This document shows positions 1,967 to 56,079 of a stretch of 64,000 bases of DNA, in pieces. This DNA comes from Planctomycetota bacterium (GTDB lineage: Bacteria; Planctomycetota; UBA1135; UBA2386). The position numbers and the translations under genes were made by a program. Positions within the stretch are counted from its first letter, which is position 1. Each line of letters begins with the position of its first letter. Below the pieces are notes generated by a model that worked only from the letters and a program-made list of their open reading frames with translations, was not told the DNA's origin and did no database searches. The stretch spans positions 12,647 through 76,646 of the forward strand of contig JANPER010000046.1 of NCBI GenBank assembly GCA_031423015.1, in the 5' to 3' direction.

Positions 1967-3406
1967 ATGGCTCAATCTCCGCTGGGATCTTCTGCGCGAC
2001 CCCTGCGCGTCGCCGTCGTCGGGTCGGGACCGTCGGCGTTCTACGCCGTGCAGGCGCTGTTCAAGACGCAGAACATGCACGTGCGCGCCGACGTGTTCGA
2101 TCGGCTGCCGACGCCGTTTGGCCTGGTGCGCGGCGGGGTCGCGCCCGACCACCAGAAGATCAAGTCGGTCACCCGCATCTATGAGGAATTGGCGCAGGAT
2201 CCGCGCTGCCGCTTCTTTGGCAACGTGCTGCTGGGCCGCGACTTGCAGGTCGCCGACCTACTCGCGCACTACGACCAGATCGTGTACGCCCTCGGCAACG
2301 AGAGCGATCGCAAGCTCGGCGTGCCGGGCGAGGACCTCGCGGGCGTGCATTCGGCGACCGAGTTCGTCGGTTGGTACAACGGACACCCGGACTTCAAGGC
2401 GCGTTCCTTCGATCTCGCCAGTGCGCGCACGGTGGCGGTGGTCGGCAACGGCAACGTGGCGATGGACGTCACGCGCATCCTGCTGAAGGATCCCGCGGCG
2501 CTCGCGAACACCGACATCGCCGACTACGCGCTCGCCGAGCTGAAGCGCAGCCAAGTGCGCGAAGTGATCTTGCTGGGGCGTCGCGGGCCGGCGCAGGCCG
2601 CGTTCTCGCCCAAGGAACTCGAAGAGATCGCCGAATTGAGCGACGTCGACGTCGTGGTCACACAGGCCGAGGCCAGCATCGACCCGATGAGCGCCAAGTG
2701 GGCAGAGTCGGAGCCGCGCTCGACGATGCGCAACATCAAGCTCGTCGAAGAGCTGGCCGGTCGCGGCGACGGCAGCAACCCCAGGAAGGCGCGCTGCCGG
2801 TTCTTGGTGGCGCCGGTGGAACTGCAAGGCGAGGGTGGTCGCGTCCGCGCGATCAAGGTCGAGCACGCGTCCCTCACCGCCGACGCCAACGGCACGCCGC
2901 GCCCCAAGGGCAACGGCAAGTACTCGGTGCTCGAGTGCCAGCTCGTGTTCAAGGCGGTGGGTTACCGCGGCGTGCCAGTGCCCGGCGTGCCGTTCGACGA
3001 CAAGGCCGGCATCGTGCCCAACCGCGAGGGTCGCGTGTTGGCACACGCCAAGGGCGAAGTCGTGCCGAACCAGTACGTCGTGGGCTGGGCCAAGCGCGGC
3101 CCCACCGGCCTGATCGGCACCAACAGCCCCGACTCGGTCGAGACCGCCAAGTGCATGGTCGCTGACCTCGCCGCCCAGACCGCGGCGGTCTTGGCGAACG
3201 ACGAACGCCACGCGATCCCACGCTTGCTGCGGAGCCGCCGCGTCGACTTCGTGTCGTGGCAAGACTGGCGGCTGCTCGACGCGCACGAGCAGGAGCAGGG
3301 CAAGCAGCACGGCAAGGTGCGCAGCAAGGTGGTGAGTGTGTCCGACATGATGGCGGTGATCGCCCGCAAACGCGCGGCCACGGGAGCCGCCGAGGAGAGT
3401 GCATGA
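1967..3406 (+). CDS. fprA: ferredoxin--NADP(+) reductase, FprA/adrenodoxin-reductase type
   Basis: ORF 1967..3406; VAVVGSGPSAFYA dinucleotide-binding fold, LPTPFGLVRGGVAPDH, VGWYNGHPDF, second Rossmann GNGNVAMDVTRIL; close collinearity with mycobacterial FprA from memory. Confidence 0.8.
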   Translation: MAQSPLGSSARPLRVAVVGSGPSAFYAVQALFKTQNMHVRADVFDRLPTPFGLVRGGVAPDHQKIKSVTRIYEELAQDPRCRFFGNVLLGRDLQVADLLAHYDQIVYALGNESDRKLGVPGEDLAGVHSATEFVGWYNGHPDFKARSFDLASARTVAVVGNGNVAMDVTRILLKDPAALANTDIADYALAELKRSQVREVILLGRRGPAQAAFSPKELEEIAELSDVDVVVTQAEASIDPMSAKWAESEPRSTMRNIKLVEELAGRGDGSNPRKARCRFLVAPVELQGEGGRVRAIKVEHASLTADANGTPRPKGNGKYSVLECQLVFKAVGYRGVPVPGVPFDDKAGIVPNREGRVLAHAKGEVVPNQYVVGWAKRGPTGLIGTNSPDSVETAKCMVADLAAQTAAVLANDERHAIPRLLRSRRVDFVSWQDWRLLDAHEQEQGKQHGKVRSKVVSVSDMMAVIARKRAATGAAEESA

Positions 3407-5658
3407 AGATCGCCTGCGTCGGCGCGGGCCCGGCGTCGCTCTACTTCGCGATCCTGATCCGCAAGGCGTTCCCCGCCGTCGAGGTCGACATCTTCGAGCG
3501 CAATCGGCACGACGACACGTTTGGCTGGGGCGTGGTGTTCTCCGACGAGACGCTCGGCAACTTCGAGGTCGCCGATCCCGAGACCTACGGCGCGATCCGC
3601 GCCGCGTTTCGCAACTGGACCGACATCGACACCTACTTCGGTGGCGAGCGCACGACGTCGACGGGCCACGGTTTCTGCGGCATGTCGCGCCAGAAGCTGC
3701 TGCTCATCTTGCAGGCGCGCGCGCGGCAGCTCGGCGTGCGGATGCACTTCGAGCGCGAAGTCCGCACACTGTCTGATCTCGGCGCCGCCGACCTGATCGT
3801 TGCCGCCGACGGCATCAACAGCATGGTGCGGGCAGCGCATCAAGACGTGTTCCAAGCGCAGCTCGACTGGCGCCAGTGCAAGTTCGCGTGGTTCGGCACC
3901 GACAAGGAACTGACCGCGTTCACGTTCGTGTTCGCGCCGACCGAGCACGGCCTGTTCCAAGTGCACGCGTATCCGTTCGACCGCGGCCTGTCGACCTGGA
4001 TCGTCGAGTGCCACGAGGACACCTGGAAGAAGGCGGGCCTCGACCAGGCAGATGAGGCCACGAGCGTGCAGTTCTGCGAGCGACTGTTCGCCGATCACCT
4101 GCGCGGCCACCGCCTCCTGGTCAACAAGTCGGTGTGGCGCTCGTTCCCCACGGTCACCTGCAAGACCTGGCGACACTGCAACATCGTGCTGCTCGGCGAC
4201 GCCGCGCACACCGCACACTTCTCGATCGGCTCGGGCACCAAGCTCGCGATGGAAGACTCGATCGCGTTGGCGACCGCGCTGACCGCATCGCGAATGCAGG
4301 ACATCCCGGGCGCCCTGGCCGCCTACGAGACAGCGCGCTACGTCGACGTGCTGAAGACGCAGCGCGCGGCGCAGACCAGCCTCGAGTGGTTCGAGAACTC
4401 GGCGCGCTACATGCAGCAACCGCCGCTCGCGCTCACCTTCAACCTGATGACGCGCAGCAAGCAGATCACGTGGGACAACTTGGGCAAGCGCGATCCTGCT
4501 TTGGTGCGGCGCGTGCGCGACGACTTTGCTGCGCGTGCCGGGGCGCCCAAGCAGTCCGACGGCCAGTGGCCGGTGCCGGTGTTCACGCCGTTCAAGCTGC
4601 GCCAACTCGAGCTGCGCAATCGCATCGTCGTGAGCCCGATGTGCCAGTACTCGGCGGTCGACGGCACGCCTGACGATTGGCACCTCGTGCACCTCGGCAG
4701 TCGCGCCGTCGGCGGCGCTGCCCTGGTGATCTGCGAGATGACGAACGTGACGGCGCAGGGCCGCATCACGCTCGGGTGCACGGGGATGTACCGCGAGGAA
4801 CACGGGCCAGCCTGGCGCCGGATCGTCGACTTCGTGCACACGCACACGGGTGCCAAGATCGGCATGCAGTTGGCGCACGCCGGTCGCAAGGGCTCGGTGT
4901 CGCACCCATGGAACAACGACGACGACCCGCTGCCGCAGGCACAGGCCTGGGAAACGCTAGCGCCGTCAGCGATCCCGTTCCGACCGCACTGGCGCACGCC
5001 GCGGGCGATGACGCGCGCCGACATGGACGCGGTGCGCGATGCCTTCGTGCGCGCCGCGCGCTGGAGCGCCGACGCTGGCTTCGACCTCCTCGAGCTGCAC
5101 ATGGCGCACGGCTACCTGCTGTCGAGCTTCCTGTCGCCGCTGAGCAACCAGCGCACCGACGCGTACGGCGGTTCGCTCGACCGCCGCATGCGCTTTCCGC
5201 TCGAGGTCTTCGCGGCTGTGCGGCAAGCCTGGCCAACGCACCAACCGATCAGCGTGCGCGTGTCGGCGACCGACTGGCTGGGCGCCGCCGGGATGACGCC
5301 ACAAGACACCGTGGTGTTGGCGCGCGCGCTCAAGGCACTCGGCGCCGACCTCATCGACGTGTCGACGGCCGGCAACGTGGCGGAGTCAACCCCCGACTAC
5401 GGTCGCATGTACCAGGTGCCGTTCGCCGAGCAGGTCCGCTTCGAGGTCGGTATGCCCGTCATGGCCGTTGGCGCCATCCTCGGCTCCGACCACTGCAACA
5501 CGATCCTCGCCGCTGGCCGCGCCGACCTGTGTTGCATGGCGCGCCCCCACCTCGGCAATCCGTACCTCACGCTGCACGCCGCGGCGAAGTACGGGTTCGT
5601 GGATCAAGCCTGGCCGGGCCAGTACCTCGCCGGTCGAGGCGCCCCGGATCTGCGCTGA
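3403..5658 (+). CDS. bifunctional FAD-dependent aromatic hydroxylase fused to Old-Yellow-Enzyme-type NADH:flavin oxidoreductase (salicylyl-CoA 5-hydroxylase-like fusion)
   Basis: ATG 3403 overlaps the fprA stop (ATGA); N-half MKIACVGAGPASLYFAIL (FAD fold) ... LLGDAAHTAHFSIGSGTKLAMEDS (FAD monooxygenase DG/GD motifs); C-half FTPFKLRQLELRNRIVVSPMCQYSAVDGTPDDWHLVHLGSRAVGGAALVICEMT ... HMAHGYLLSSFLSPLSNQRTD (OYE/TIM-barrel flavin oxidoreductase). Confidence 0.7.
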   Translation: MKIACVGAGPASLYFAILIRKAFPAVEVDIFERNRHDDTFGWGVVFSDETLGNFEVADPETYGAIRAAFRNWTDIDTYFGGERTTSTGHGFCGMSRQKLLLILQARARQLGVRMHFEREVRTLSDLGAADLIVAADGINSMVRAAHQDVFQAQLDWRQCKFAWFGTDKELTAFTFVFAPTEHGLFQVHAYPFDRGLSTWIVECHEDTWKKAGLDQADEATSVQFCERLFADHLRGHRLLVNKSVWRSFPTVTCKTWRHCNIVLLGDAAHTAHFSIGSGTKLAMEDSIALATALTASRMQDIPGALAAYETARYVDVLKTQRAAQTSLEWFENSARYMQQPPLALTFNLMTRSKQITWDNLGKRDPALVRRVRDDFAARAGAPKQSDGQWPVPVFTPFKLRQLELRNRIVVSPMCQYSAVDGTPDDWHLVHLGSRAVGGAALVICEMTNVTAQGRITLGCTGMYREEHGPAWRRIVDFVHTHTGAKIGMQLAHAGRKGSVSHPWNNDDDPLPQAQAWETLAPSAIPFRPHWRTPRAMTRADMDAVRDAFVRAARWSADAGFDLLELHMAHGYLLSSFLSPLSNQRTDAYGGSLDRRMRFPLEVFAAVRQAWPTHQPISVRVSATDWLGAAGMTPQDTVVLARALKALGADLIDVSTAGNVAESTPDYGRMYQVPFAEQVRFEVGMPVMAVGAILGSDHCNTILAAGRADLCCMARPHLGNPYLTLHAAAKYGFVDQAWPGQYLAGRGAPDLR

Positions 5659-43979: not shown

Positions 43980-45005
43980 GTGCTCCGCGACACCTTCCAC
44001 CGCCCGCTCGCCAACCTGCGCGTGTCGGTCACCGACCGCTGCAACCTGCGCTGCGCCTACTGCATGCCCGAGGAGGAATACGTCTGGCTGCCGCGGACCG
44101 ACATCCTCGACTTCGAGGAGACGAGCCGCTTGGTCGACGTGTTCGCAAAGCTCGGCGTCGAGGAAGTGCGGGTCACCGGCGGTGAACCCCTCGTGCGGCA
44201 CGACCTCGACGTGCTCGTGCGCATGCTGGCCAGCAAGCCGGCGCTGCGCGACCTGGCGTTGACCACCAACGGCGTGCTGCTCGATCGGCACGCCGCGACG
44301 CTGAAGGCCGCTGGCCTCTCCCGCGTCACCATCAGCCTCGACACGCTGCGGCCCGAGCGCTTCTTGGCGTTGACGCGGCGCGACGATCACGCGCGCGTCC
44401 TCGCCGGCATCGACGCTGCGCTCGTCGCTGGCTTCGAGCGCGTGAAGCTCAACACCGTCGTGCTGCGCGGCACCAACGACGACGAGATCGGCGACTTGCT
44501 GGCGTTTGGCCGCGAGCGCAATATCGAGGTGCGCTTCATCGAGTACATGGACGTCGGCGGGGCGACGCGTTGGTCGCGCGCCGACGTGGTGTCGGCGCGC
44601 GAGATCCTGGCCTCGATCGCCGCGCGCTTCGGCGCCGTGCAGCCGGTCGACGAGGCGCGCGGCACGGCGCCGGCGGAACGCTTCGCGCTCGCCGACGGCA
44701 CGCGCTTTGGCGTGATCGCGAGCACGACGCAGCCGTTCTGCGGCACCTGCGATCGCGCCCGGCTGACCGCCGACGGCACGTTCTTCACCTGTCTCTACGC
44801 GCGCAACGGGCTCGACCTGCGCGCGCCGCTGCGCGCCGGCGCCAGCGACGAGGAGTTGCGCGAACTGATCGCGCAGACGTGGAGGCTCCGCGCCGACCGC
44901 GGCGCCGAGCAGCGACTGGGCCTGGCTGCGGCAAGGCAGCCGCTCGCCGACGTCACCGAACTGCGCGCCGAGCCGCACCTCGAGATGCACACGCGCGGCG
45001 GCTAA
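43980..45005 (+). CDS. moaA: GTP 3',8-cyclase (molybdenum cofactor biosynthesis protein A)
   Basis: radical-SAM CNLRCAYC, VRVTGGEPL, C-terminal CGTCDRARLTADGTFFTCL cluster. Confidence 0.85.
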   Translation: MLRDTFHRPLANLRVSVTDRCNLRCAYCMPEEEYVWLPRTDILDFEETSRLVDVFAKLGVEEVRVTGGEPLVRHDLDVLVRMLASKPALRDLALTTNGVLLDRHAATLKAAGLSRVTISLDTLRPERFLALTRRDDHARVLAGIDAALVAGFERVKLNTVVLRGTNDDEIGDLLAFGRERNIEVRFIEYMDVGGATRWSRADVVSAREILASIAARFGAVQPVDEARGTAPAERFALADGTRFGVIASTTQPFCGTCDRARLTADGTFFTCLYARNGLDLRAPLRAGASDEELRELIAQTWRLRADRGAEQRLGLAAARQPLADVTELRAEPHLEMHTRGG

Positions 45006-46294
45006 GCGATTGGCGTCGTCGCGGCCGGCGTGCTGCGTCGGCGAAAGGCGGCGGCCAGCCAGTAGCAGACGATCACCCAGCCCACGGCCAACGGCAGCGC
45101 GACCGCCGCCGCCTGCGTTGGCGAGGCGTCGGTGAGGACGGCGAGGGACCACAGCACCACGACGTCGGCGGCGCGGTTCACCACGGTGTCGATGAACGCC
45201 TTGGCCTCGTACTTTTCCTGACGTGGCACCACGGTGAAGAGCACCTCGCGCGCCGGCTTGGCGAAGCCGAATTCGACGCCACGCCGCACCACCTGAACCA
45301 CCGCGAGCACCGCCAACGTCGGCGACCAGGCGAGCGCGGCCACCGCGCCGAGGCTCACCACGGGAAGCAACGCCATCACCGGGCCGAGGCCGACGCGGCG
45401 CATCGCGTGCGCGACGACGAACACTTCGAGCAGGAGCGTCAGCAGGTTGGCGCCGAGGTCGACGTTCGCGAAGAACGTGGTGCGCTCTTCTTCGCCGCCG
45501 AGCAGCGCGCGCGCCATCCGTCCCTGCGTGTAGTACAGGTAGGTGGAGGTCAGGATGTCGAAGAGCATCACCAGCGCCAGCGCACCGAGGTAGCGGGAGC
45601 GCGCCACCTGCCGGGCACCCCGAAACGCGTCGGCGAACGACGACACCCGCGCCGCGGCGCGCGGCTCTACGTGCGCGAGGCCGTGCACAGCCACCAGGCG
45701 GTGCACGCAGACGACGGCGAACTCGATGCCGAGCGCCGCCACGAGCAAGACGATCTCGACGCCGACTTGGCCCATGACGCTAGTGAGCGCCGAGCCGACG
45801 ACGGCGCCGAGCGTGCCGCCCGCAGCGATGAAGCCAAACAGACGTTGGCCCTGCGCTGGCGTGTGCACGTCCGCCATGAACGCCCAGAACACCGCGGTGA
45901 GGCCAAACAGGTTGTAGACGCTCAGCCAGACGAAGAAGACGTAGCCCGCTCCCACGCGCGCGTTGCCTGCCGGCAGCAGCCACAGCAGCGCCGCGAACAC
46001 GACGCAACACACGGCGGCCAGGTGATAGACGACGGGCAGCAGCCGTGCGCGCGGCAAGCGACCCACGAGCCAGGTGTAGGCTGGCATGGCGACCAGCGTG
46101 GCGGCGAGCGTGCCGAGGAACAGCCACTTCAACGTCTCCGGCCCGCGCTCGACGCCGAGCGCGTCGCGCACTGGGCGCAGCATGTAGTAGCTCGCCAGCA
46201 AGAAGAAGAAGTAGGTCGCCGCGAGCAACAGGCTCTTGGATTCGCCCGGCTCGACGTTCACCAGTCGCCGCAGGAGAGTGCCAGGAGCTTGCAT
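45002..46294 (-). CDS. TLC-type (ATP/ADP-translocase-like) nucleotide-transporter-family membrane protein
   Basis: start at internal ATG 46294 (MQAPGTLLRRL...); ESKSLLLAATYFFFLLASYYMLRPVRDALGV parallels the TLC N-terminal signature ([28 protein letters not shown]) recalled from memory; ~12 TM segments; the first 250 codons of the track ORF are Arg/Ser-rich out-of-frame noise. Confidence 0.55.
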   Translation of the reverse strand: MQAPGTLLRRLVNVEPGESKSLLLAATYFFFLLASYYMLRPVRDALGVERGPETLKWLFLGTLAATLVAMPAYTWLVGRLPRARLLPVVYHLAAVCCVVFAALLWLLPAGNARVGAGYVFFVWLSVYNLFGLTAVFWAFMADVHTPAQGQRLFGFIAAGGTLGAVVGSALTSVMGQVGVEIVLLVAALGIEFAVVCVHRLVAVHGLAHVEPRAAARVSSFADAFRGARQVARSRYLGALALVMLFDILTSTYLYYTQGRMARALLGGEEERTTFFANVDLGANLLTLLLEVFVVAHAMRRVGLGPVMALLPVVSLGAVAALAWSPTLAVLAVVQVVRRGVEFGFAKPAREVLFTVVPRQEKYEAKAFIDTVVNRAADVVVLWSLAVLTDASPTQAAAVALPLAVGWVIVCYWLAAAFRRRSTPAATTPIA

Positions 46295-46298
46295 GCGG

Positions 46299-47927
46299 TC
46301 AGCGGCCCCGCAGGAGCGCGAGGTTGTGGCGCGCGGCTGCGAAGTTCGGTTCGAGTTCGAGCGCTCGGAGGAGGTGCCGCTCCGCGTCCGCGCGCAGGCC
46401 GAGCGACGCGAGACACGCGGCCAGTCCGACGTGCGCGGGCGCGTGCACCTCGTGCGCGCGAAGGATGGTCTCGAACATGGCGCCAGGTCGGCGCCAGTCG
46501 GGTTGTGCGGACTCAGCCTCGGCGAAGAAGGCGCACCACGCGAGGCCAGCTTCGATATCGGCCTGCAGACGTACGCGGCCGTCTTCGCCGCCAAAGCGAC
46601 GCTCGACGACGCGCTCTGCCGCGTGCGCGAGCCAGAACTTTGCCGCCTTGACGCCCGGCGGCTGCGCTTCGAGTTCGATCTGTCCGAGCATGTAGAGCAC
46701 GCGCGCATCGGCCTTGGCGAGATCCGTCGCGCCGAGCTGCGCGTGCGCAAACGTGATCGGACTCGCCCAAGACCCAGCGGCGACGAACGCCCGTCCGGCG
46801 TAGAACGCCGCCAGAAGCAGCAGCGCCGCCAGGCCGGCGCGACGCCAGCGCAGGAGCGACGCGAGCGCGAGCGCGAGGCCAAACACCGGCACGTAGAGGT
46901 AGCGATCGGCGATCGGATACTCGCCGGCTTTCGACGGGGCGGACACCACCAGGAAGATCGGCAACAGAATGGCGACGCCGCCGAACGCCACGCGCCAGGC
47001 TCCGCGTTGGCGAGCCAGGACCACCACCGAGATCGTGGCAAGGGTCAGGCCGACGAAGGCATAGTGGAAGACGCTGAACTCGACCGGCGTCAGCCGCATC
47101 GCTTTCGGTTCCAGCGGCCACAAGAGGACGGCGAGCAAGCGCCCCGCGAGCGTGAATGCCAGGCGTCCGGCGTCGCGCGCCGCCACGCTGAGAATCGGCC
47201 CACGGTTGAATCCGGCGTGCCAGTCGCCGAACACCAGCACGCGCGCTGCAAGCCACGGCAGCAGCACCAAGAGAAACGCCAGGTAGCTCGACCATCGTGG
47301 CGAGGTCTGGCGCGGCGACGTCTGGCGTGGCGACGGCACCCACCGATCGATCGCGAACAGAAGGCCCGGGATGACGAGAGCCGTCTCCTTGGCCATCAAC
47401 CCGAGCGCGAACCAGGCGAGCACGCGCCACGACACGCCCGCGCGGCCACGACCGCGTTCCTCCAGATGGCGGTTCAACGCCAGCAGGACGCACAGTCCGC
47501 ACAGCACGTCGTTCAAGGCGGCACACCAGGCCACGCTCTCGGCCTGCGCCGGATGCACGCCGAACAGCAGCGCCACGCAGAACGCCGCGACGGAGTTGCT
47601 AGTGAGCCTATTCGCCAAGCGATGTGCGACGAGGACCGCCAGCAGGTGGGCGGCAAGCGCCAGCGCATGCACGAAGGTGGCGCCACCGAGCGCGTGCCCG
47701 ACCGCGAGCAACACTTGCGTGAGCGGCCGCCAGTGCGGAAAGGCCGGCCCCCACAACGGCTGCACCACCGCTTGCCACCACTCGCCCCCGGCGATCACCG
47801 GGTTGCCCGCGATCAGGGTAAGGTCGTCATAGACGTAGGCACCGAACAGCGCGCGACCGAAGGTCGCGGACACCAGCGCCACGAGCAGCAAGTGCGGGAG
47901 ATGGCGCGCCAAGGCGGGCGATGCTAC
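46299..47927 (-). CDS. polytopic membrane protein (PMT/TMTC-like glycosyltransferase fold suspected) with C-terminal TPR repeats
   Basis: ORF 46299..48242, real start probably near 47927 (VASPALARHLPHLLLVAL); many TM helices, early-loop YVYDD motif, C-terminal TPR-like helices (ACLASLGLRADAERHLLRALELEPNFAAARHNLAL). Confidence 0.45.
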   Translation of the reverse strand, partial: VASPALARHLPHLLLVALVSATFGRALFGAYVYDDLTLIAGNPVIAGGEWWQAVVQPLWGPAFPHWRPLTQVLLAVGHALGGATFVHALALAAHLLAVLVAHRLANRLTSNSVAAFCVALLFGVHPAQAESVAWCAALNDVLCGLCVLLALNRHLEERGRGRAGVSWRVLAWFALGLMAKETALVIPGLLFAIDRWVPSPRQTSPRQTSPRWSSYLAFLLVLLPWLAARVLVFGDWHAGFNRGPILSVAARDAGRLAFTLAGRLLAVLLWPLEPKAMRLTPVEFSVFHYAFVGLTLATISVVVLARQRGAWRVAFGGVAILLPIFLVVSAPSKAGEYPIADRYLYVPVFGLALALASLLRWRRAGLAALLLLAAFYAGRAFVAAGSWASPITFAHAQLGATDLAKADARVLYMLGQIELEAQPPGVKAAKFWLAHAAERVVERRFGGEDGRVRLQADIEAGLAWCAFFAEAESAQPDWRRPGAMFETILRAHEVHAPAHVGLAACLASLGLRADAERHLLRALELEPNFAAARHNLALLRGR

Positions 47928-47953
47928 GCCGCGGCACCGGGCCTTGGCACGCC

Positions 47954-49387
47954 TTACGGCGTGAGGATCTTGAAGTCCAAGCCCTGGCTGCCCGACAGCT
48001 GGAACGGCCCGCCAAGGTCGAACACCAGGAACTGCGTGTAGAGATGCTGTCCGCTCAGCTGGGGCACGTTCGGCACGGGCAATGGCACGCTCGCGGCCCC
48101 GTTGGTATCGGTCACGATCGGAATCGTGATCGGCGTCGTCACGAACACATCCACGTTGAGACGCAGGCCGGCGAGGTTGACATTCGCGCTGGCGGCGTTG
48201 AGGAGCATCACCCCCGGCGAGTTTGACACCGCCTTGGCGCATTCCAGCTTGAACGCCGCGTTGCCGAGATAGGCCGCGCCGAAGCCGTGGATCGCCGGCT
48301 TGTTGCCGCTCCCACCCGCCGTCGGCTCACCGTAGCGCACGACCGCGCTGTCGGGTCGCAGCACGTAGAGGCCCGTCTGCACATCGCTGATGTAGACGAT
48401 CCCGGTCGGCAAGTAGGGGAACACGCCCCATGCACCGTTGAAGCCGCTGCTCGGCCCCGCATAGGTGTCGTAGTCGCCCACGACCACGGGTTGCGTCGGC
48501 ACCGAGATGTCGATGCCCACGTAGCCCTCGGTGTAGTACGCGATGTGCACCACGCGGTCGCGCTCCATCACCAGGTGGATCACCGCCGTCGCGGGCGCGG
48601 GATGGATCTGCGCGACCAGAATCGGCAACGACTTGATGCGCACGTCCCACACCGACATCGGCCCGCCGCCGGCCTCGCTGGTTCCCACCGCGTAGTCGTT
48701 GTCGCGCGTCGCGCGCACGTTGTGGAAGAACCGCCGGCCTGGCGCAAGCGCCGACCCCAACACGGTGATGGCCGGCAGATTGCTCACGTCGGCGACGAAG
48801 AAGCGGTGGCCAAAGATGTCGCACAGGTAGGCGTAGCCGTCCTGGACGTGCCCGTCGTGCACGTAGAAGTTGATGAACGAAGTGACCAGCGGCGGCTGCG
48901 TCGGATTGGCCGCGACGTCGAACACCAACATCCCGAGGTTGGTGCCGCAGCAGTAGATCTTGCCGGTGCCGTCGTCGACCAAGATCGTGTGCGTGTAGTT
49001 CCAACCCGCCACCGTGTGCGTGCCCACGAGCAGTGGACTCGCGGGATTGGAGAGATCGATGACCTGCATGCCACCGCCGCCCTGGGTCACCACGTAGCAG
49101 TAGTGACCGTAGGTCTTGGCCTCGCGCCAACCCGAACTTGGTCCCGCGATGAACGCGCGCTGCACCGGAACACCCGTCGTGCAATCGAGCACGTAGGTGC
49201 CGCTCATCGACAGCAAGAACGCGAGTTCAGTGCCGTTCGTCGGCTCGCGATAGCCCCACACTCCGCTGCTCATCTCCCCTGGATTGAAGCTGCCGAGCAG
49301 CTGCGTGTTGCGCCCGGTCTGCGCCAGCAGCGTCGCCGGCAGAGACAGGGATAGCAAGGCGAGGGCGAGAGCTGACGAACGGGGCAT
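47954..49387 (-). CDS. secreted LVIVD-repeat / choice-of-anchor-B-like beta-propeller protein
   Basis: signal peptide MPRSSALALALLSLSLPATLLAQ; repeated G-x-Y-x-V-x-hydrophobic-D/S units (MQVIDLSNPASP, LVFDVAANP, FFVADVSNLP, MSVWDVRIKSLP). Confidence 0.5.
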   Translation of the reverse strand: MPRSSALALALLSLSLPATLLAQTGRNTQLLGSFNPGEMSSGVWGYREPTNGTELAFLLSMSGTYVLDCTTGVPVQRAFIAGPSSGWREAKTYGHYCYVVTQGGGGMQVIDLSNPASPLLVGTHTVAGWNYTHTILVDDGTGKIYCCGTNLGMLVFDVAANPTQPPLVTSFINFYVHDGHVQDGYAYLCDIFGHRFFVADVSNLPAITVLGSALAPGRRFFHNVRATRDNDYAVGTSEAGGGPMSVWDVRIKSLPILVAQIHPAPATAVIHLVMERDRVVHIAYYTEGYVGIDISVPTQPVVVGDYDTYAGPSSGFNGAWGVFPYLPTGIVYISDVQTGLYVLRPDSAVVRYGEPTAGGSGNKPAIHGFGAAYLGNAAFKLECAKAVSNSPGVMLLNAASANVNLAGLRLNVDVFVTTPITIPIVTDTNGAASVPLPVPNVPQLSGQHLYTQFLVFDLGGPFQLSGSQGLDFKILTP

Positions 49388-49684
49388 CGCGACGGGAGAG
49401 CTGCGACCGTGACGAGAGAGGAGAAGGGGCGCAGGAGTTTAGCACGCCGAATCGTGTGGTCGGCGCCGTTGCCGACACCTTCACGGGCATTCTGTGGTCG
49501 ATGCGATCGGAGTTACGGCGCAGCGAGGAAGAGGCGCGCAGGGGTCATGCGGTCTGCGAGCGCGAGACCGACGTGATCGCAAGTGGCAGGGACCTTCGAT
49601 GTCGATGGCGACGCGAGCGAGCCGGCCGATGACGTGGGGACCTGCCGCGCGTTGGCGCGAACGTTTGCACCGCCGGGGCCGCAC

Positions 49685-49724
49685 GCGCCCGTAGCTCAGT
49701 TGGATAGAGCACCGCTTTCCTAAA
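49685..49724 (+). repeat. 40-nt copy of the 5' half of tRNA-Arg(CCT): left attachment-site repeat of an integrated islet
   Basis: GCGCCCGTAGCTCAGTTGGATAGAGCACCGCTTTCCTAAA identical to 52300..52339, diverging in the 3' side of the anticodon loop. Confidence 0.8.
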
Positions 49725-49906
49725 CGGCTGCGAAGTCGGCACCGGGTACGCCCCCAAGCGCCCCAACTGGCCGCCGCGGTCGGGGTTGCGATGACTTGTT
49801 CGCCCCGGGCACGCCCCGGTGGACGCGGTTTCAGGACCTTTCGATGGCCTTACGGAGGCGAACGGTAGTGCAAGTAAGGTCAATCGGCTTGTCGATGTAG
49901 CAGGCG

Positions 49907-51118
49907 ATGGGTGGCACCAAGAGACTGATGCAGGAGTTGGAGGCGCAGGCAGAGTGGTTCGTGCCTGTTCGCGACAAGTCCGTGTGCGCGGCGTGTCTCT
50001 ACGACGAGTTCCTGGCCGGCTGGGCACGCCAATCCGCAGACCAAGGCGAGTGCACGTACTGCGAGGCCGAGGGGCCGATCCGCCCGGTGGACGGCCTGCT
50101 CGAACTGGTGCGCAGTGGCATCGACCTCGAGTGGACTTGCGCTGACTCCGCCGGCATGATCTGGGATGGGGAAGAGAAGTGTTACGTGGGTGGCGCCCAC
50201 GACACGTACGACCTCGTCCGCGACCACCTGGATCCCATCACGGAGAACGAGACGCTCCTCGCGGACATCTGGCGTGCGCTGCCCGACCGCCAATGGTGCA
50301 AGCCGGATCCATATGACCCAACTCTGTACGACCGGCTCTCATGGGACTTTCGGCGCTTCGAGAGTTGCGTCCTGCATAAGCGCAGGTTCTTCTTCCACGA
50401 AGTCCGGGAGGAAAACGAGGAGACTGGACAACCCACAGTCTCGATCGGTGGCTGGCTTCGCTTGGTCGCGCACGGCATTCGCGAGTGTGGGCTCTTACGG
50501 GACTGGGCGCCGGGAACGAAGACCTGGCGGGCGCGCGTCGACTACAAGGGCGAGCGCTTCGCAACGGCGGACGCGCTTGGGTCCCGGCGCGAGGAAGAGG
50601 CGACCCAGTCCAACAGGATGAGTCCGCCAGGCATCCCCGTGTTCTACGGTGCGCTCGACCCAGACACGACGGTAGACGAGATCTTCGAGCGACGCGAGGG
50701 GGATGCGGTTGCTTCGATAGGCTGCTTCACGCTGGCGAGGCACTTTCGCGTCCTTGATCTCACAGACCTTCCCAACTTCCCGAGCCTGTACGACCCCGAC
50801 CGCCGGAAACAGAGGAAGTACCTTCGCTTCCTTCGCGAGTTCGCGGAGCGAATCGCCAGACGGATCGCGGGCGACGACCGCCACCACATTGATTACATCC
50901 CGACGCAGATCGTCGCCGAGTACTTCAGGTTCCATCTTGAGCCCAGGGTGCGGCCACTTGATGGCATCGCGTGGAAAAGCAGTTACAGGTCGGGCGGAGT
51001 CTGCGTTGCGCTCTTCTTGAAGAACTCCGAGTGCGTTGACCGCGAGACCAACAAAGGTCCCGACAGACCTGGCGTTCGCCTGGAATCGGTCGAGCATCGA
51101 CCTCTACCGGGACCGTGA
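49907..51118 (+). CDS. Cys-rich N-domain + RES-like C-domain protein (putative NAD+-targeting toxin/defence effector)
   Basis: 403-aa ORF; N-terminal CAACLYDE...CTYCEAEG Cys pairs; aa ~235-290 NRMSPPGIPVFYGALDPDTTVDEIFER resemble the RES core (GGRWNPPG..LY.A.S...E) as recalled from MbcT/ResT; no database search run. Confidence 0.5.
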   Translation: MGGTKRLMQELEAQAEWFVPVRDKSVCAACLYDEFLAGWARQSADQGECTYCEAEGPIRPVDGLLELVRSGIDLEWTCADSAGMIWDGEEKCYVGGAHDTYDLVRDHLDPITENETLLADIWRALPDRQWCKPDPYDPTLYDRLSWDFRRFESCVLHKRRFFFHEVREENEETGQPTVSIGGWLRLVAHGIRECGLLRDWAPGTKTWRARVDYKGERFATADALGSRREEEATQSNRMSPPGIPVFYGALDPDTTVDEIFERREGDAVASIGCFTLARHFRVLDLTDLPNFPSLYDPDRRKQRKYLRFLREFAERIARRIAGDDRHHIDYIPTQIVAEYFRFHLEPRVRPLDGIAWKSSYRSGGVCVALFLKNSECVDRETNKGPDRPGVRLESVEHRPLPGP

Positions 51119-51243
51119 TCGAGGGGCTTCAACAAAGAACCCTCGCCCCGAACTTGCCCCCGCTGCTCCCATCCTGACCCCGGCTGCTCCCGACGCGGAA
51201 CTGCTGCAGAAGCCGAGTGCTCCGATCCGAGGCATGCTTCTGC

Positions 51244-52309
51244 ATGCCCAAGTTCAAGTTGACGACGACCAGCGTCAAGCAGCGCTGCCGGCCGCACGCG
51301 CCGCGTCAAGGTTGGGCGCTACCCCACCTGGACGGTTGACCAGGCCCGCAAGCGCGCCCGCGAGCTGCTGGTGCAGATGGACCGGGGCGTGGACCCGAAC
51401 GCCCAGAAGCGAGAGGCCGCCGCCCGCGGCACGACGCTGCGCGAGGCCCGAGATTGGCACTGCGCCGCCATGCGGGCGAAGCGCGCGGCGCCCAGGTCCT
51501 TGGACACGGTGCGCGAGGAGACCGATCGGCACCTGTCCGACTGGCTCGACCGGCCGCTGACTAGCATCCGTCCGACCGAGTGCGCCAACCGGCACTCGCG
51601 GGTCACCGAGACCAGCGGGCCGTACGCCGCCAACCGGGCGCTGCAGACGTTCCGCGCCTGCTGGAACACTGCTCACCCGCAGGCTCGACGACCTGCCGCC
51701 CTGCCCTACGCGTGGAGTGGTGTTCAGCCCGGTCCGCCGGCGGCGTGAGCCGATCGTCTGGGCGCAGCTGCCCGCTTGGAGGGCAGCCGTGGAGGCCATC
51801 GACAACCCGATCCGCCGCGACCTACAGCTCTTCATCCTGCTGACCGGGCTGCGCTCGACCGACGCCAAGACCGTGCGCTGGGAGCATGTGGACTTCGAGA
51901 AGGGCACGATCCACCGGCCCAAGCCCAAGGGCGGTGAGGACCGCACGTTCACCGTGCCCGTGTCGCAAGCCGTGCTCGACATCCTGCGCCGCCGGCGCGA
52001 GGAGAACGCCATCATCTTCCCGCGCGACGAGGGGTGGGCCTGGCCGTCGCGGGCAAGAAGACGACCACGTTCCCCGGCCCGCACCGCCTACGCGACACGT
52101 TCGCCAGCGCCGCGCACGAGGCCAAGGTGGACTGGTACGACCTCAAGGTCTTGATGAACCATGCGCTGCCGGCCAACGGCGACGTGACCATGGGCTACAT
52201 CCGCGTGTCGGTCGAGCACCTGCGTGAGGCGACGGAGAAGATCGCGGGCTTCCTGCTGGAGAAGATGGCTGCGCCAGAGGGTACGATCGCGCCCTGCAAG
52301 CGCCCGTAG
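51244..52309 (+). pseudogene. tyrosine recombinase/integrase, P4-like, multiply disrupted
   Basis: arm-binding start MPKFKLTTTSVKQ then stop and internal deletion; SAM-like segment RYPTWTVDQARKRARELLVQMDRGVDPNAQKREA (ORF 51371..51748); catalytic fragments LLTGLRSTDAKTVRWEHVDF (51717..52154) and HRLRDTFASAAHE...VLMNHALPANGDVTMGYIRV (52034..52309) in three different frames; stop overlaps tRNA nt 8-10. Confidence 0.7.
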
Positions 52310-52376
52310 CTCAGTTGGATAGAGCACCGCTTTCCTAAAGCGGGGGTCACAGGTTCGACTCCTGTCGGGCGTGCCA
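52300..52376 (+). tRNA. tRNA-Arg(CCT)
   Basis: manual cloverleaf: acceptor GCGCCCG/CGGGCGT (G1-U72 wobble), D-arm GCTC-AGTTGGATA-GAGC, anticodon arm CCGCT-TTCCTAA-AGCGG (anticodon CCT), T-arm ACAGG-TTCGACT-CCTGT, discriminator G, encoded CCA. Confidence 0.85.
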
Positions 52377-54281: not shown

Positions 54282-55070
54282 CTAAGCGCGCCCTTCCGTC
54301 GCCGCCTGGTCGGTGCGCGCAAACAACCGGTCGCGCACTGCCGCCAACTCGCGCGGCAAGCCATCGAAGAACACGCGGCCGTCGCGCACGGCGAGCACGC
54401 GATCGAAGCGCTCAGTCACCAGCTCCAGTTGGTGCAAGCCGACGATCGCGGTGCGGCGCTCGCGACGCACCAGATCGACCAGCAAATCGATCATGTCGCG
54501 CGCCAGGGTCGGGTCGAGCGACGCCGCTGGTTCGTCGGCGAGCACCAACCGCGGCTCTTGTACCAGCAGGCGCGCAAACGCCACGCGCTGGCGCTGACCG
54601 CCGGACAGCGTGCCGATCGGCGCTTCGACTTTGTCCTCGATGCCGGCCGCGCGCAGCGCCGCCGCCGCCTTGTCGCGTTCTTGCGGCCACAGCAAAGACC
54701 AGACGCTGCGCAAGAACGACCAGCGACCCACGCGGCCGAGCAGCACGTTGTGGATCGTGCGCAGCCCAGGCACCAACGCGTCGGCTTGGTAGAGGTGACC
54801 AATGTCGAGCCGCAGCTTGCGCAGCTGCCGCGCCGACAACCCGGCGAGGTCTTGGCCGAGCACCGTCACACGACCCCGATCGGGCGCAAGATCACCCGAC
54901 AGCAGGCGCAGCAGCGTGGTCTTGCCGGCTCCCGACGGGCCGACCAGCGCGACGACTTGACCCTCGGGGATGGCGAAGGTGACGTCGCGCAGCACCGCGT
55001 GCGCGCCGAACACCTTGTCTACCCCTTCGACGCTGACCGCCGACCGCGGCTGCGCTGCGACCGCAGTCAT
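54282..55070 (-). CDS. phnC: phosphonate-type ABC transporter ATP-binding protein
   Basis: internal ATG 55070 (MTAVAAQPRS); Walker A GPSGAGKTT, signature LSGGQRQRVAFARLL, Walker B LVLADEPAASLD. Confidence 0.75.
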   Translation of the reverse strand: MTAVAAQPRSAVSVEGVDKVFGAHAVLRDVTFAIPEGQVVALVGPSGAGKTTLLRLLSGDLAPDRGRVTVLGQDLAGLSARQLRKLRLDIGHLYQADALVPGLRTIHNVLLGRVGRWSFLRSVWSLLWPQERDKAAAALRAAGIEDKVEAPIGTLSGGQRQRVAFARLLVQEPRLVLADEPAASLDPTLARDMIDLLVDLVRRERRTAIVGLHQLELVTERFDRVLAVRDGRVFFDGLPRELAAVRDRLFARTDQAATEGRA

Positions 55071-55155
55071 GCCAGGTCCCCACGAGGAATCGATGGAGTT
55101 CGTCGTTCGCGCACGGGCTTGCGATCCTCGGTTCACGCTGACGACGAACGCGGGC

Positions 55156-56079
55156 CTAGCTGCCCTTGAACATGGACTCGAGCGCCGGCGACTGCAGGAC
55201 CGCCTTGATGCCATCCCACCACTCAGGAACAGCGACCACATACTTGCCGCCGACATTGTCGTTGGCACCCATCACCGTCTTCTCGAGGTCGCTGGATCCA
55301 TCCAGTCCGAGGAACGCCTTCTTCAACTTGTCGAGCGTGCCCGCGCCAAAGCGCTGGTCGATGTCCGTGCGCGCACTCCACGAGTAGTCGATGTACTTCG
55401 GCGTCTCCCACAGCACCCGCACCTGCTCCTTGGTGACCTTGCCCTCCCTGATCCACTTGTCGTAGGTGGAGTAGTTCACCGCGCCAGCATCAAAGGTGCC
55501 GTCGCGCACATCGGTGATGGTCTTGTCGTGGTTGCCACTGAACGCCACCAAGCTGAAGAACTTCTCGGCCTCGGCGACGCCTTGCTCCTTGGCCAGCAGG
55601 TGGCGCGGCATGACGTGCCCCGACGTGCTCTTCTTGTCGCCAAAGGTGAACTTCTTGCCCGCGAGGTCGGCGACCTTCTGGTACGGCGAGTCACCCTTGA
55701 CGATGATGTAGCTCTTGAACTCGAGGTCCTTGGCGCGCGACACCAGCGGCAGCACGGCGCCCTTGCTCTTGAGCATCGCGTCGACCGTGGTCACGCCGCC
55801 GAGCCAACCGAGGTCGGCTTGGTTCGAGACCAGCGCGACGACGGCGCCTTCATACGTCGTCGGCTTGATCTCGGCGTCCACGCCCAGCTCGGCCTTGATC
55901 CAGGCCGCGATCTGCAACTGGTCATCCCGCAAGCGATCCTTGTTGGCATCCGGGATCGCCACCACGCGCAACACGGCGCGAGCTTCGCTGGGTTTGGCGG
56001 GAGCCGAAGGGGCTTCGCTGGGTTTAGAGCAAGCGGAGAGGAGAAGGCCGAGGCCGGCCACGCAGAGCGTCAGGCGCAT
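55156..56079 (-). CDS. phnD: phosphonate-type ABC transporter substrate-binding lipoprotein
   Basis: internal ATG 56079; lipobox LLLSAC; PhnD/SsuA-like fold motifs (LRVVAIPD, YEGAVVALVSNQADLGWLGG, GHVMPRHLL). Confidence 0.7.
   Translation of the reverse strand: MRLTLCVAGLGLLLSACSKPSEAPSAPAKPSEARAVLRVVAIPDANKDRLRDDQLQIAAWIKAELGVDAEIKPTTYEGAVVALVSNQADLGWLGGVTTVDAMLKSKGAVLPLVSRAKDLEFKSYIIVKGDSPYQKVADLAGKKFTFGDKKSTSGHVMPRHLLAKEQGVAEAEKFFSLVAFSGNHDKTITDVRDGTFDAGAVNYSTYDKWIREGKVTKEQVRVLWETPKYIDYSWSARTDIDQRFGAGTLDKLKKAFLGLDGSSDLEKTVMGANDNVGGKYVVAVPEWWDGIKAVLQSPALESMFKGS

Follow-up and report, generated by a model that had tools for sequence, protein, structure and literature searches.

A stand-alone RES-domain gene in a decayed tRNA-Arg(CCT) islet of a planctomycete probably encodes an aRES-type anti-phage effector

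Results

A RES-domain protein with a fused N-terminal module

The window analysed here, a stretch of 64,000 nucleotides (nt) from a Planctomycetota bacterium (contig JANPER010000046.1), contains a gene for a protein of 403 amino acids (aa) that lies in a small islet beside a tRNA-Arg(CCT) gene (Table 1). Its open reading frame (ORF) is intact and starts with ATG. The initial annotation of this gene, made without database searches, had described a cysteine-rich N-terminal domain followed by a RES-like core, and all the features that it named are indeed present: the paired cysteines CAAC and CTYC at residues 27-30 and 49-52, and the stretch NRMSPPGIPVFYGALDPDTTVDE at residues 236-258. Its two domain assignments were both confirmed by Pfam, with PF18870 (HEPN_RES_NTD1) matching residues 43-167 (E 9.7e-24, 84.6 bits against a cut-off of 27.4) and PF08808 (RES) residues 207-382 (E 7.2e-18, 65.5 bits against a cut-off of 23.2); no further Pfam family was found in the protein at E values up to 10. 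A search of 5.8 billion proteins yielded 109 relatives, nearly all of about 400 aa and with the same two Pfam domains. Since both Pfam matches lie well above their cut-offs and the homologues carry the same two domains, the domain and motif features of the protein are far above chance level. No match was obtained in PADLOC 2023 (which is older than the aRES family discussed below), NCBIfam (release 20) or PHROGs.

The nearest non-identical relative shares only 44% identity with the 403-aa protein. In an alignment of 45 relatives, the columns of R160, R208, R237, S239, G242, E258, F308, P332, Q334 and S358 are invariant. The residues of most interest in the RES domain are R208, R210, R237, Y247, E258 and S358, and among 48 aligned sequences three of these (R237, E258 and S358) never vary. 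In the N-terminal part, C27, C49 and C52 are conserved in at least 90% of the family, the column of C30 holds either C or H, and W130, L144, W148 and F151 are strongly conserved. R160 (nt 50384-50386) is invariant in 48 of 48 aligned sequences, among them three experimentally validated proteins (see below), and is an arginine also in the Escherichia coli representative of these. The length of the ORF is in line with that of the relatives (about 390-425 aa), and the protein starts with the MGxxK of the family. It should be mentioned that relatives on plasmids (e.g. NZ_CP123382.1 99225-100400) are labelled 'HEPN-associated N-terminal domain-containing protein' by PGAP; this label is misleading as to the effector, which is a RES domain in these relatives, with no HEPN domain present.

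An AlphaFold2 model computed with the family alignment was confident (mean predicted local distance difference test score 89.6, predicted template modelling score 0.85), and in the models the zinc-ribbon region contains short strands at residues 25-27, 46-48 and 55-60. Fold comparison assigned the C-terminal half to the ADP-ribosyltransferase (ART) fold, with ParT and Res ranking top in Foldseek. Sequence searches of the PDB found no RES toxin, neither with the single protein nor with the family profile, so that the link was made only by fold comparison. Because even the profile missed the solved RES toxins, the RES domain of the 403-aa protein must be regarded as a distant one.

Table 1. Features of the gene and its islet in the window
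Feature	Position	Strand	Remarks
Left repeat copy, attL core	49681..49724	+	44-nt direct repeat; 43/44 identical to 52296-52339
Displaced 5' fragment of tRNA-Arg(CCT), tRNA positions 1-40, reaching the anticodon loop	49685-49724	+	
Non-coding leader, 182 nt, attL to start codon	49725..49906	+	No Rfam family except a weak tRNA-fragment match
aRES-like gene, 403 aa, intact	49907..51118	+	
Zinc-ribbon-like CxxC...CxxC (C27, C30, C49, C52)	49985..50062	+	Conserved Cys columns; short strands in models
HEPN/RES N-terminal domain 1 (NTD1), PF18870, aa 43-167	50033..50407	+	Mostly helical; invariant R160 in KHxxRYxF-type motif
RES domain, PF08808, aa 207-382	50525..51052	+	ART-fold NAD+-processing catalytic domain
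Tyrosine-integrase pseudogene	51290..52309	+	Three frames: 51290-51748, 51717-52154, 52034-52309
Right repeat copy (attR, together with the intact tRNA: 52296..52376)	52296-52339	+	Direct-repeat search
Intact tRNA-Arg(CCT)	52300-52376	+	ARAGORN; Rfam tRNA 66.6 bits

Comparison with the validated aRES proteins

Stand-alone RES-domain proteins from defence islands were recently described under the name aRES (Osterman et al., bioRxiv, 28 Jan 2026, doi 10.64898/2026.01.28.702374). Three of them, from E. coli UC5, Klebsiella pneumoniae S_34AVR as well as Enterobacter chengduensis GN04826, make E. coli withstand a diverse range of phages, with arrest of growth; upon infection nicotinamide adenine dinucleotide (NAD+) is depleted and ADP-ribose-1''-phosphate (ADPR-1''-P) builds up, the reaction products being nicotinamide and ADPR-1''-P. 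The tested proteins were non-toxic before infection, defence was lost when the predicted RES active site carried point mutations, and about 4% of genomes were seen to encode homologues. The strain list of that study contains six mutants of the E. coli UC5 protein (R182A, R184A, R215A, Y225A, E236A and S334A), the residue equivalent to R160 not being among those mutated, and the study is silent on the trigger of aRES and on the N-terminal module. The proteins were detected by a rule demanding a length of 300-600 aa and matches to the RES Pfam family and to PF18870; the methods of the preprint give PF00808 as the RES accession in three places, which we took as a misprint of PF08808.

The 403-aa protein falls under this rule, as it carries the RES domain and PF18870 in the same polypeptide and its length is within the range. 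For direct comparison we used the E. coli UC5 sequence given in supplementary table S4 of the preprint (first 399 residues as stored). BLASTP aligned the RES core with 31% identity (E 9e-14). When the family alignment was compared with the UC5 protein by hhalign, the two matched with 99.86% probability (E 2e-31) over 325 columns (query 22-380, target 3-363), a span that takes in the zinc ribbon, the N-terminal domain and the RES domain; the overall identity is about 22%. In the joint alignment, R182, R184, R215, Y225, E236 and S334 of UC5 align with R208, R210, R237, Y247, E258 and S358, respectively, so that all six positions are conserved. The candidate catalytic Arg, Glu and Ser of the initial annotation are thus found at invariant positions that align with R215, E236 and S334 of UC5. 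The spacing of R237, Y247 and E258 also parallels that of R47, Y58 and E69 in MbcT, an NAD+ phosphorylase in which R47 and Y58 are essential for toxicity.

These comparisons also bear on what had been expected of the gene. A single-gene, NAD+-depleting abortive-infection effector working without an antitoxin, as the initial annotation proposed, has been demonstrated for aRES of the same architecture (doi 10.64898/2026.01.28.702374), and may by analogy be expected here. As to the proposed NAD+ glycohydrolase activity, the chemistry demonstrated for MbcT and aRES is phosphorolysis of NAD+ to ADPR-1''-P and not simple glycohydrolysis. The view that every characterised RES toxin measures about 180 aa and comes with an antitoxin is outdated, and the novelty claimed for the gene fails because stand-alone aRES of the same architecture have already been characterised. 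The functional reading is therefore essentially right and no longer new, the architecture having been described in 2013 (PMC3710099) and the function in 2026 (doi 10.64898/2026.01.28.702374). Judged from its sequence, the window protein is a new, divergent addition to the known aRES family.

The tRNA-Arg(CCT) islet

The gene sits in an islet of 2.6 kb between the two repeats, the only other content being the remnant of a tyrosine integrase. The 44-nt repeat consists of 4 nt followed by tRNA positions 1-40, with the crossover in or beside the anticodon loop. The description of the gene as the sole intact cargo of a tRNA islet thus holds, with the correction that it is the 5' half of the tRNA that is duplicated; this places the islet upstream of the intact tRNA, which must rely on the element for its 5' half and for any promoter. 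In the Islander paper '5' fragment upstream' is a legal configuration, so such a layout is already known.

The integrase remnant gave an Arm-DNA-bind_3 match in Pfam that is limited to profile positions 42-83, and Phage_integrase matches in two frames. Compared with the intact 415-aa integrase of a related element (see below), it shows 69-76% aa identity from residue 67 on, and 74-79% nt identity. As the alignment to this relative begins at residue 67 and runs through three frames, the integrase has lost about 66 N-terminal residues and has suffered at least two frameshifts. Its stop codon (52307-52309) falls within the tRNA's first 10 nt.

The genes flanking the islet encode an LVIVD-repeat protein and ABC-transporter subunits. 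At 0.62-0.645, the GC content of the aRES-like gene is below the value of about 0.69-0.72 in the flanks. We considered whether adjacency to a tRNA gene could be a general property of the family, and rejected this, as a tRNA was found within about 6 kb in just 4 of 60 homologous loci.

No rRNA gene was found in the window. Two observations were made elsewhere in it. An ORF at 45002..47041 on the reverse strand has a weak match to the TLC ATP/ADP transporter and overlaps another reverse-strand ORF (46299..48242, no Pfam match) by about 740 nt in a different frame; long ORFs are found also on the opposite strand at 45002-48242, as is typical of DNA of about 70% GC. At 55000-56000 the GC content falls to 0.61-0.65, as low as inside the aRES gene, with negative GC skew, which may mark a further foreign or atypical segment.

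A related element on another contig

The closest relative, P0002, is encoded on a contig of 5.2 kb (L091; Logan SRR14932548, 1-5249). Immediately upstream of its gene lies an intact gene for a 415-aa integrase (230-1477) of the same family as the remnant in the window, and the contig also encodes a 126-aa ORF and a 640-aa ATPase (3146-5068, reverse strand) that matches the AriA, Old and GajA models. The window's 39-40-nt 5' fragment of tRNA-Arg(CCT) is found at the left end (1-40), and towards the other end the opposite strand carries an intact variant tRNA-Arg(CCT) (5093-5169), before which stands the 3' end of a second integrase. The two tRNA-related sequences are mutually inverted, and the gene order is unlike that of the window. 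The database start of P0002 (331 aa) is 57 codons late: the frame from 1506 (1506-2672) gives a protein of 388 aa that opens with MGFAKRQLEE and includes a CAGC...CSYC zinc ribbon. Since this contig joins an aRES-like gene, a related integrase, an ATPase gene and tRNA-Arg(CCT) sequences, there is a link between the aRES lineage of the window and a family of elements that target tRNA-Arg(CCT) and bear defence genes.

Search for a partner gene

To look for a partner gene we surveyed the neighbourhoods of 80 loci, out of at least 583 that matched, in species-representative genomes of Actinomycetota, Bacillota, Pseudomonadota, Acidobacteriota, Bacteroidota, Chloroflexota, Planctomycetota and Nitrospirota and of one archaeon. 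None of the 35 further ORFs in 49300-51700 with a length of 20 aa or more had BLASTP relatives among the neighbours at these loci, and the intergenic DNA of the islet had no BLASTN match to homologous loci except an identical short contig (L001). No ORF for an antitoxin of the Xre, MbcA or ParS type was found next to the gene in the islet. As far as can be read from the DNA itself, the initial annotation was hence right that the gene has no small partner ORF.

Three kinds of hidden partner were considered and rejected. The first was a small antitoxin ORF, for which those at 49796-49900 and 51036-51560 were examined; they have no Pfam match and no relatives beside the homologues. The second was an antisense gene of 200 aa (50495..51097, reverse strand), which lies within the part of the gene that codes for RES and in tblastn matched more than 50 homologous loci on their antisense strand. 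The matching frame is the codon-for-codon antisense frame, and stops in it number 0-8 in homologues of GC content above 0.6 versus 18-31 in those below 0.4. Since stops accumulate in the low-GC homologues, this ORF is not a gene and its apparent conservation is a shadow of that of the sense strand. The third was a non-coding partner; Rfam finds only tRNA, a YrlA-like match at 49622-49734 (25 bits against a gathering threshold of 69) being the tRNA fragment.

At the 80 loci, when every ORF of 40 aa or more lying no farther than 3 kb from the gene was clustered, no neighbour family was present in more than three loci, and the triplets came from closely related genomes. The closest neighbours differ freely in strand, distance and length. 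Likewise, Pfam scans of the genes directly next to it, 73 upstream and 76 downstream, gave no family more than three times, and helix-turn-helix proteins took this place in only 3 upstream and 2 downstream cases. The window gene is thus a stand-alone gene, with no neighbour that recurs in the survey.

What does recur across loci is the type of neighbourhood and not any one neighbour. Genes beside the relatives encode type IV restriction enzymes (SRA/PvuRts1I), ABC-3C, Eco57I, UvrD helicase, PglZ and Fic; other contexts include restriction-modification and helicase genes, an integrative and conjugative element (ICE) with ArdC and ParB, and IS66 and AlpA. Relatives also adjoin OLD/GajA-like genes, and on a Vibrio plasmid the anti-phage gene Hhe lies beside one. 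Plasmid records that contain them number 136, of which 104 are conjugative, and they are in none of 50,697 phage records. At one locus a NarE-like ART is encoded 40 nt upstream of the aRES-like gene, and at another an FRG-domain protein is encoded 37 nt downstream, with an ADP-ribosylglycohydrolase farther on; such NAD+/ADP-ribose enzymes flank the gene at single loci (L087 4574-4960; L088 6258-6950 and 10817-11221) and are not recurrent.

Discussion

The gene is, in our judgement, probably an aRES-type stand-alone anti-phage effector with an NAD+-depleting abortive-infection mechanism. The observations made here that form the basis of this reading are the domains, the fold, the full-length homology to a validated aRES, the conservation of the experimentally probed residues, the absence of a partner gene from the islet and the anatomy of the islet. 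Anti-phage activity and the reaction products come from the literature on the relatives, whose mode of action the 403-aa protein would share by analogy. In an uninfected cell the protein would be held inactive. Upon phage infection a cue would turn on the C-terminal RES domain, which would phosphorolyse NAD+ to nicotinamide and ADPR-1''-P, and the resulting collapse of NAD+ would stop the growth of the infected cell and block phage replication. The cue is probably read by the module made up of the zinc ribbon and HEPN/RES-NTD1; this module would most likely be a sensor or autoinhibitor that stands in for the separate antitoxin of the RES-Xre systems. The gene itself probably came as cargo of a small element whose integration site is the 5' half of tRNA-Arg(CCT); this element then decayed and left the gene fixed in place.

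There is a small chance that the gene departs further from the known proteins than this. It could represent a deep aRES-like clade carried by small elements that target the 5' half of tRNA-Arg(CCT), with either an N-terminal mechanism new to NAD+-depleting defences or a differing chemistry or target. The zinc-ribbon and NTD1 module with its invariant R160 has a fold without solved analogue, and may then recognise a phage cue or serve as a gate to the RES site.

We consider it unlikely that the gene is a silent or non-functional relic of the decayed mobile element. The adjoining integrase is truncated and frameshifted, and only one copy of the exact sequence is on record, so that selection is not measurable. 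The promoter of the gene presumably lies in the 182-nt leader, which has no similarity to the flanks of the homologues and in which a scan for sigma-70 promoters found nothing; such a scan, however, uses the sigma-70 consensus only and is uninformative in an organism of about 70% GC. Moreover, the ORF is of full length, begins with the N-terminus of the family and has kept all family-invariant residues, which argues against decay of the gene itself. Somewhat less probable still is that the RES domain acts in the manner of ParT as an ADP-ribosyltransferase of a specific cellular or phage protein, for instance phosphoribosyl-pyrophosphate synthetase, without depleting the NAD+ pool; ParT ranks among the top fold matches, and the residues probed by mutation in the NAD+-depleting UC5 protein are conserved. 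Least probable of all is an addiction or stabilisation module of the islet, in which a toxin with a fused cis-acting antitoxin would retain the element rather than fight phage: RES-Xre pairs are described as stabilising plasmids (e.g. PMC10896132), conjugative plasmids and ICEs commonly carry relatives, and the gene has outlasted its integrase, but a single polypeptide offers no differential-stability route to post-segregational killing, the tested relatives protect against phage and are non-toxic until infection, and many relatives lie in chromosomal defence contexts.

As an aRES-type gene it adds a divergent high-GC environmental member to a family that has been tested in three enterobacterial proteins only. 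The survey of 80 loci across many phyla gives independent support for the stand-alone status of the family, and the islet shows that the family can ride tRNA-targeting mini-islands and outlive their decay. The chief scientific value left lies in how aRES gets switched on, a question that is not specific to this locus and for which the locus is no easier a test system than the E. coli proteins already available. Targets for mutagenesis in the N-terminal module would be the four cysteines C27, C30, C49 and C52, the arginine R160, and the aromatic residues W130, W148 and F151.

Relation to known systems

The RES-Xre toxins (MbcT/MbcA, NatT/NatR, Res/Xre of P. putida and VPA0770/VPA0769) are single-domain proteins of about 145-250 aa with a separate antitoxin of the Xre type; in MbcTA the C-terminus of the antitoxin plugs the active-site cleft of the toxin. 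The window protein shares their RES catalytic fold but is larger, has no antitoxin gene and carries an N-terminal module of about 200 aa in the same chain. It also differs from ParT, the RES toxin of ParST, which ADP-ribosylates Prs, has the antitoxin ParS and is without an N-terminal module.

The domain HEPN/RES-NTD1 was defined by Anantharaman et al. 2013 (PMC3710099, Table 2), who noted a zinc ribbon N-terminal to the NTD1 that is fused to RES, described the combination of NTD1 and RES in silico, and grouped such N-terminal domains with abortive-infection-like architectures. HEPN RNases with NTD1 (MAE_18760/MAE_28990-type) have the same N-terminal domain family as the predicted phage-interacting or regulatory part of abortive-infection-like systems made up of one protein. 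In contrast to these HEPN/RES-NTD1-HEPN proteins, the effector of the window protein is RES, and no HEPN domain with an Rx4-6H motif was found in it by Pfam at E values up to 10. The proposed combination of a sensor and an NAD+-destroying effector in one polypeptide, leading to abortive infection or growth arrest, resembles DSR2 and other defences based on SIR2 or TIR. Their catalytic fold is, however, unrelated, and they release ADP-ribose, whereas RES releases ADPR-1''-P, a product that phage NARP1 cannot recycle (doi 10.64898/2026.01.28.702374).

By far the closest counterparts are the aRES proteins themselves. The window protein differs from them in motif variants (NRMSPPG instead of GRMNAQG, and YIPTQ instead of YLITQ) and in its host, an environmental bacterium of about 70% GC, activity being known for the three enterobacterial members only. 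Its gene lies in a degenerate tRNA-Arg islet between housekeeping-type genes and not in a multi-system defence island. It has in common with aRES the succession of CxxC...CxxC, PF18870 and RES, the same size class and a gene that stands alone; its relatives occur on mobile elements and in defence contexts.
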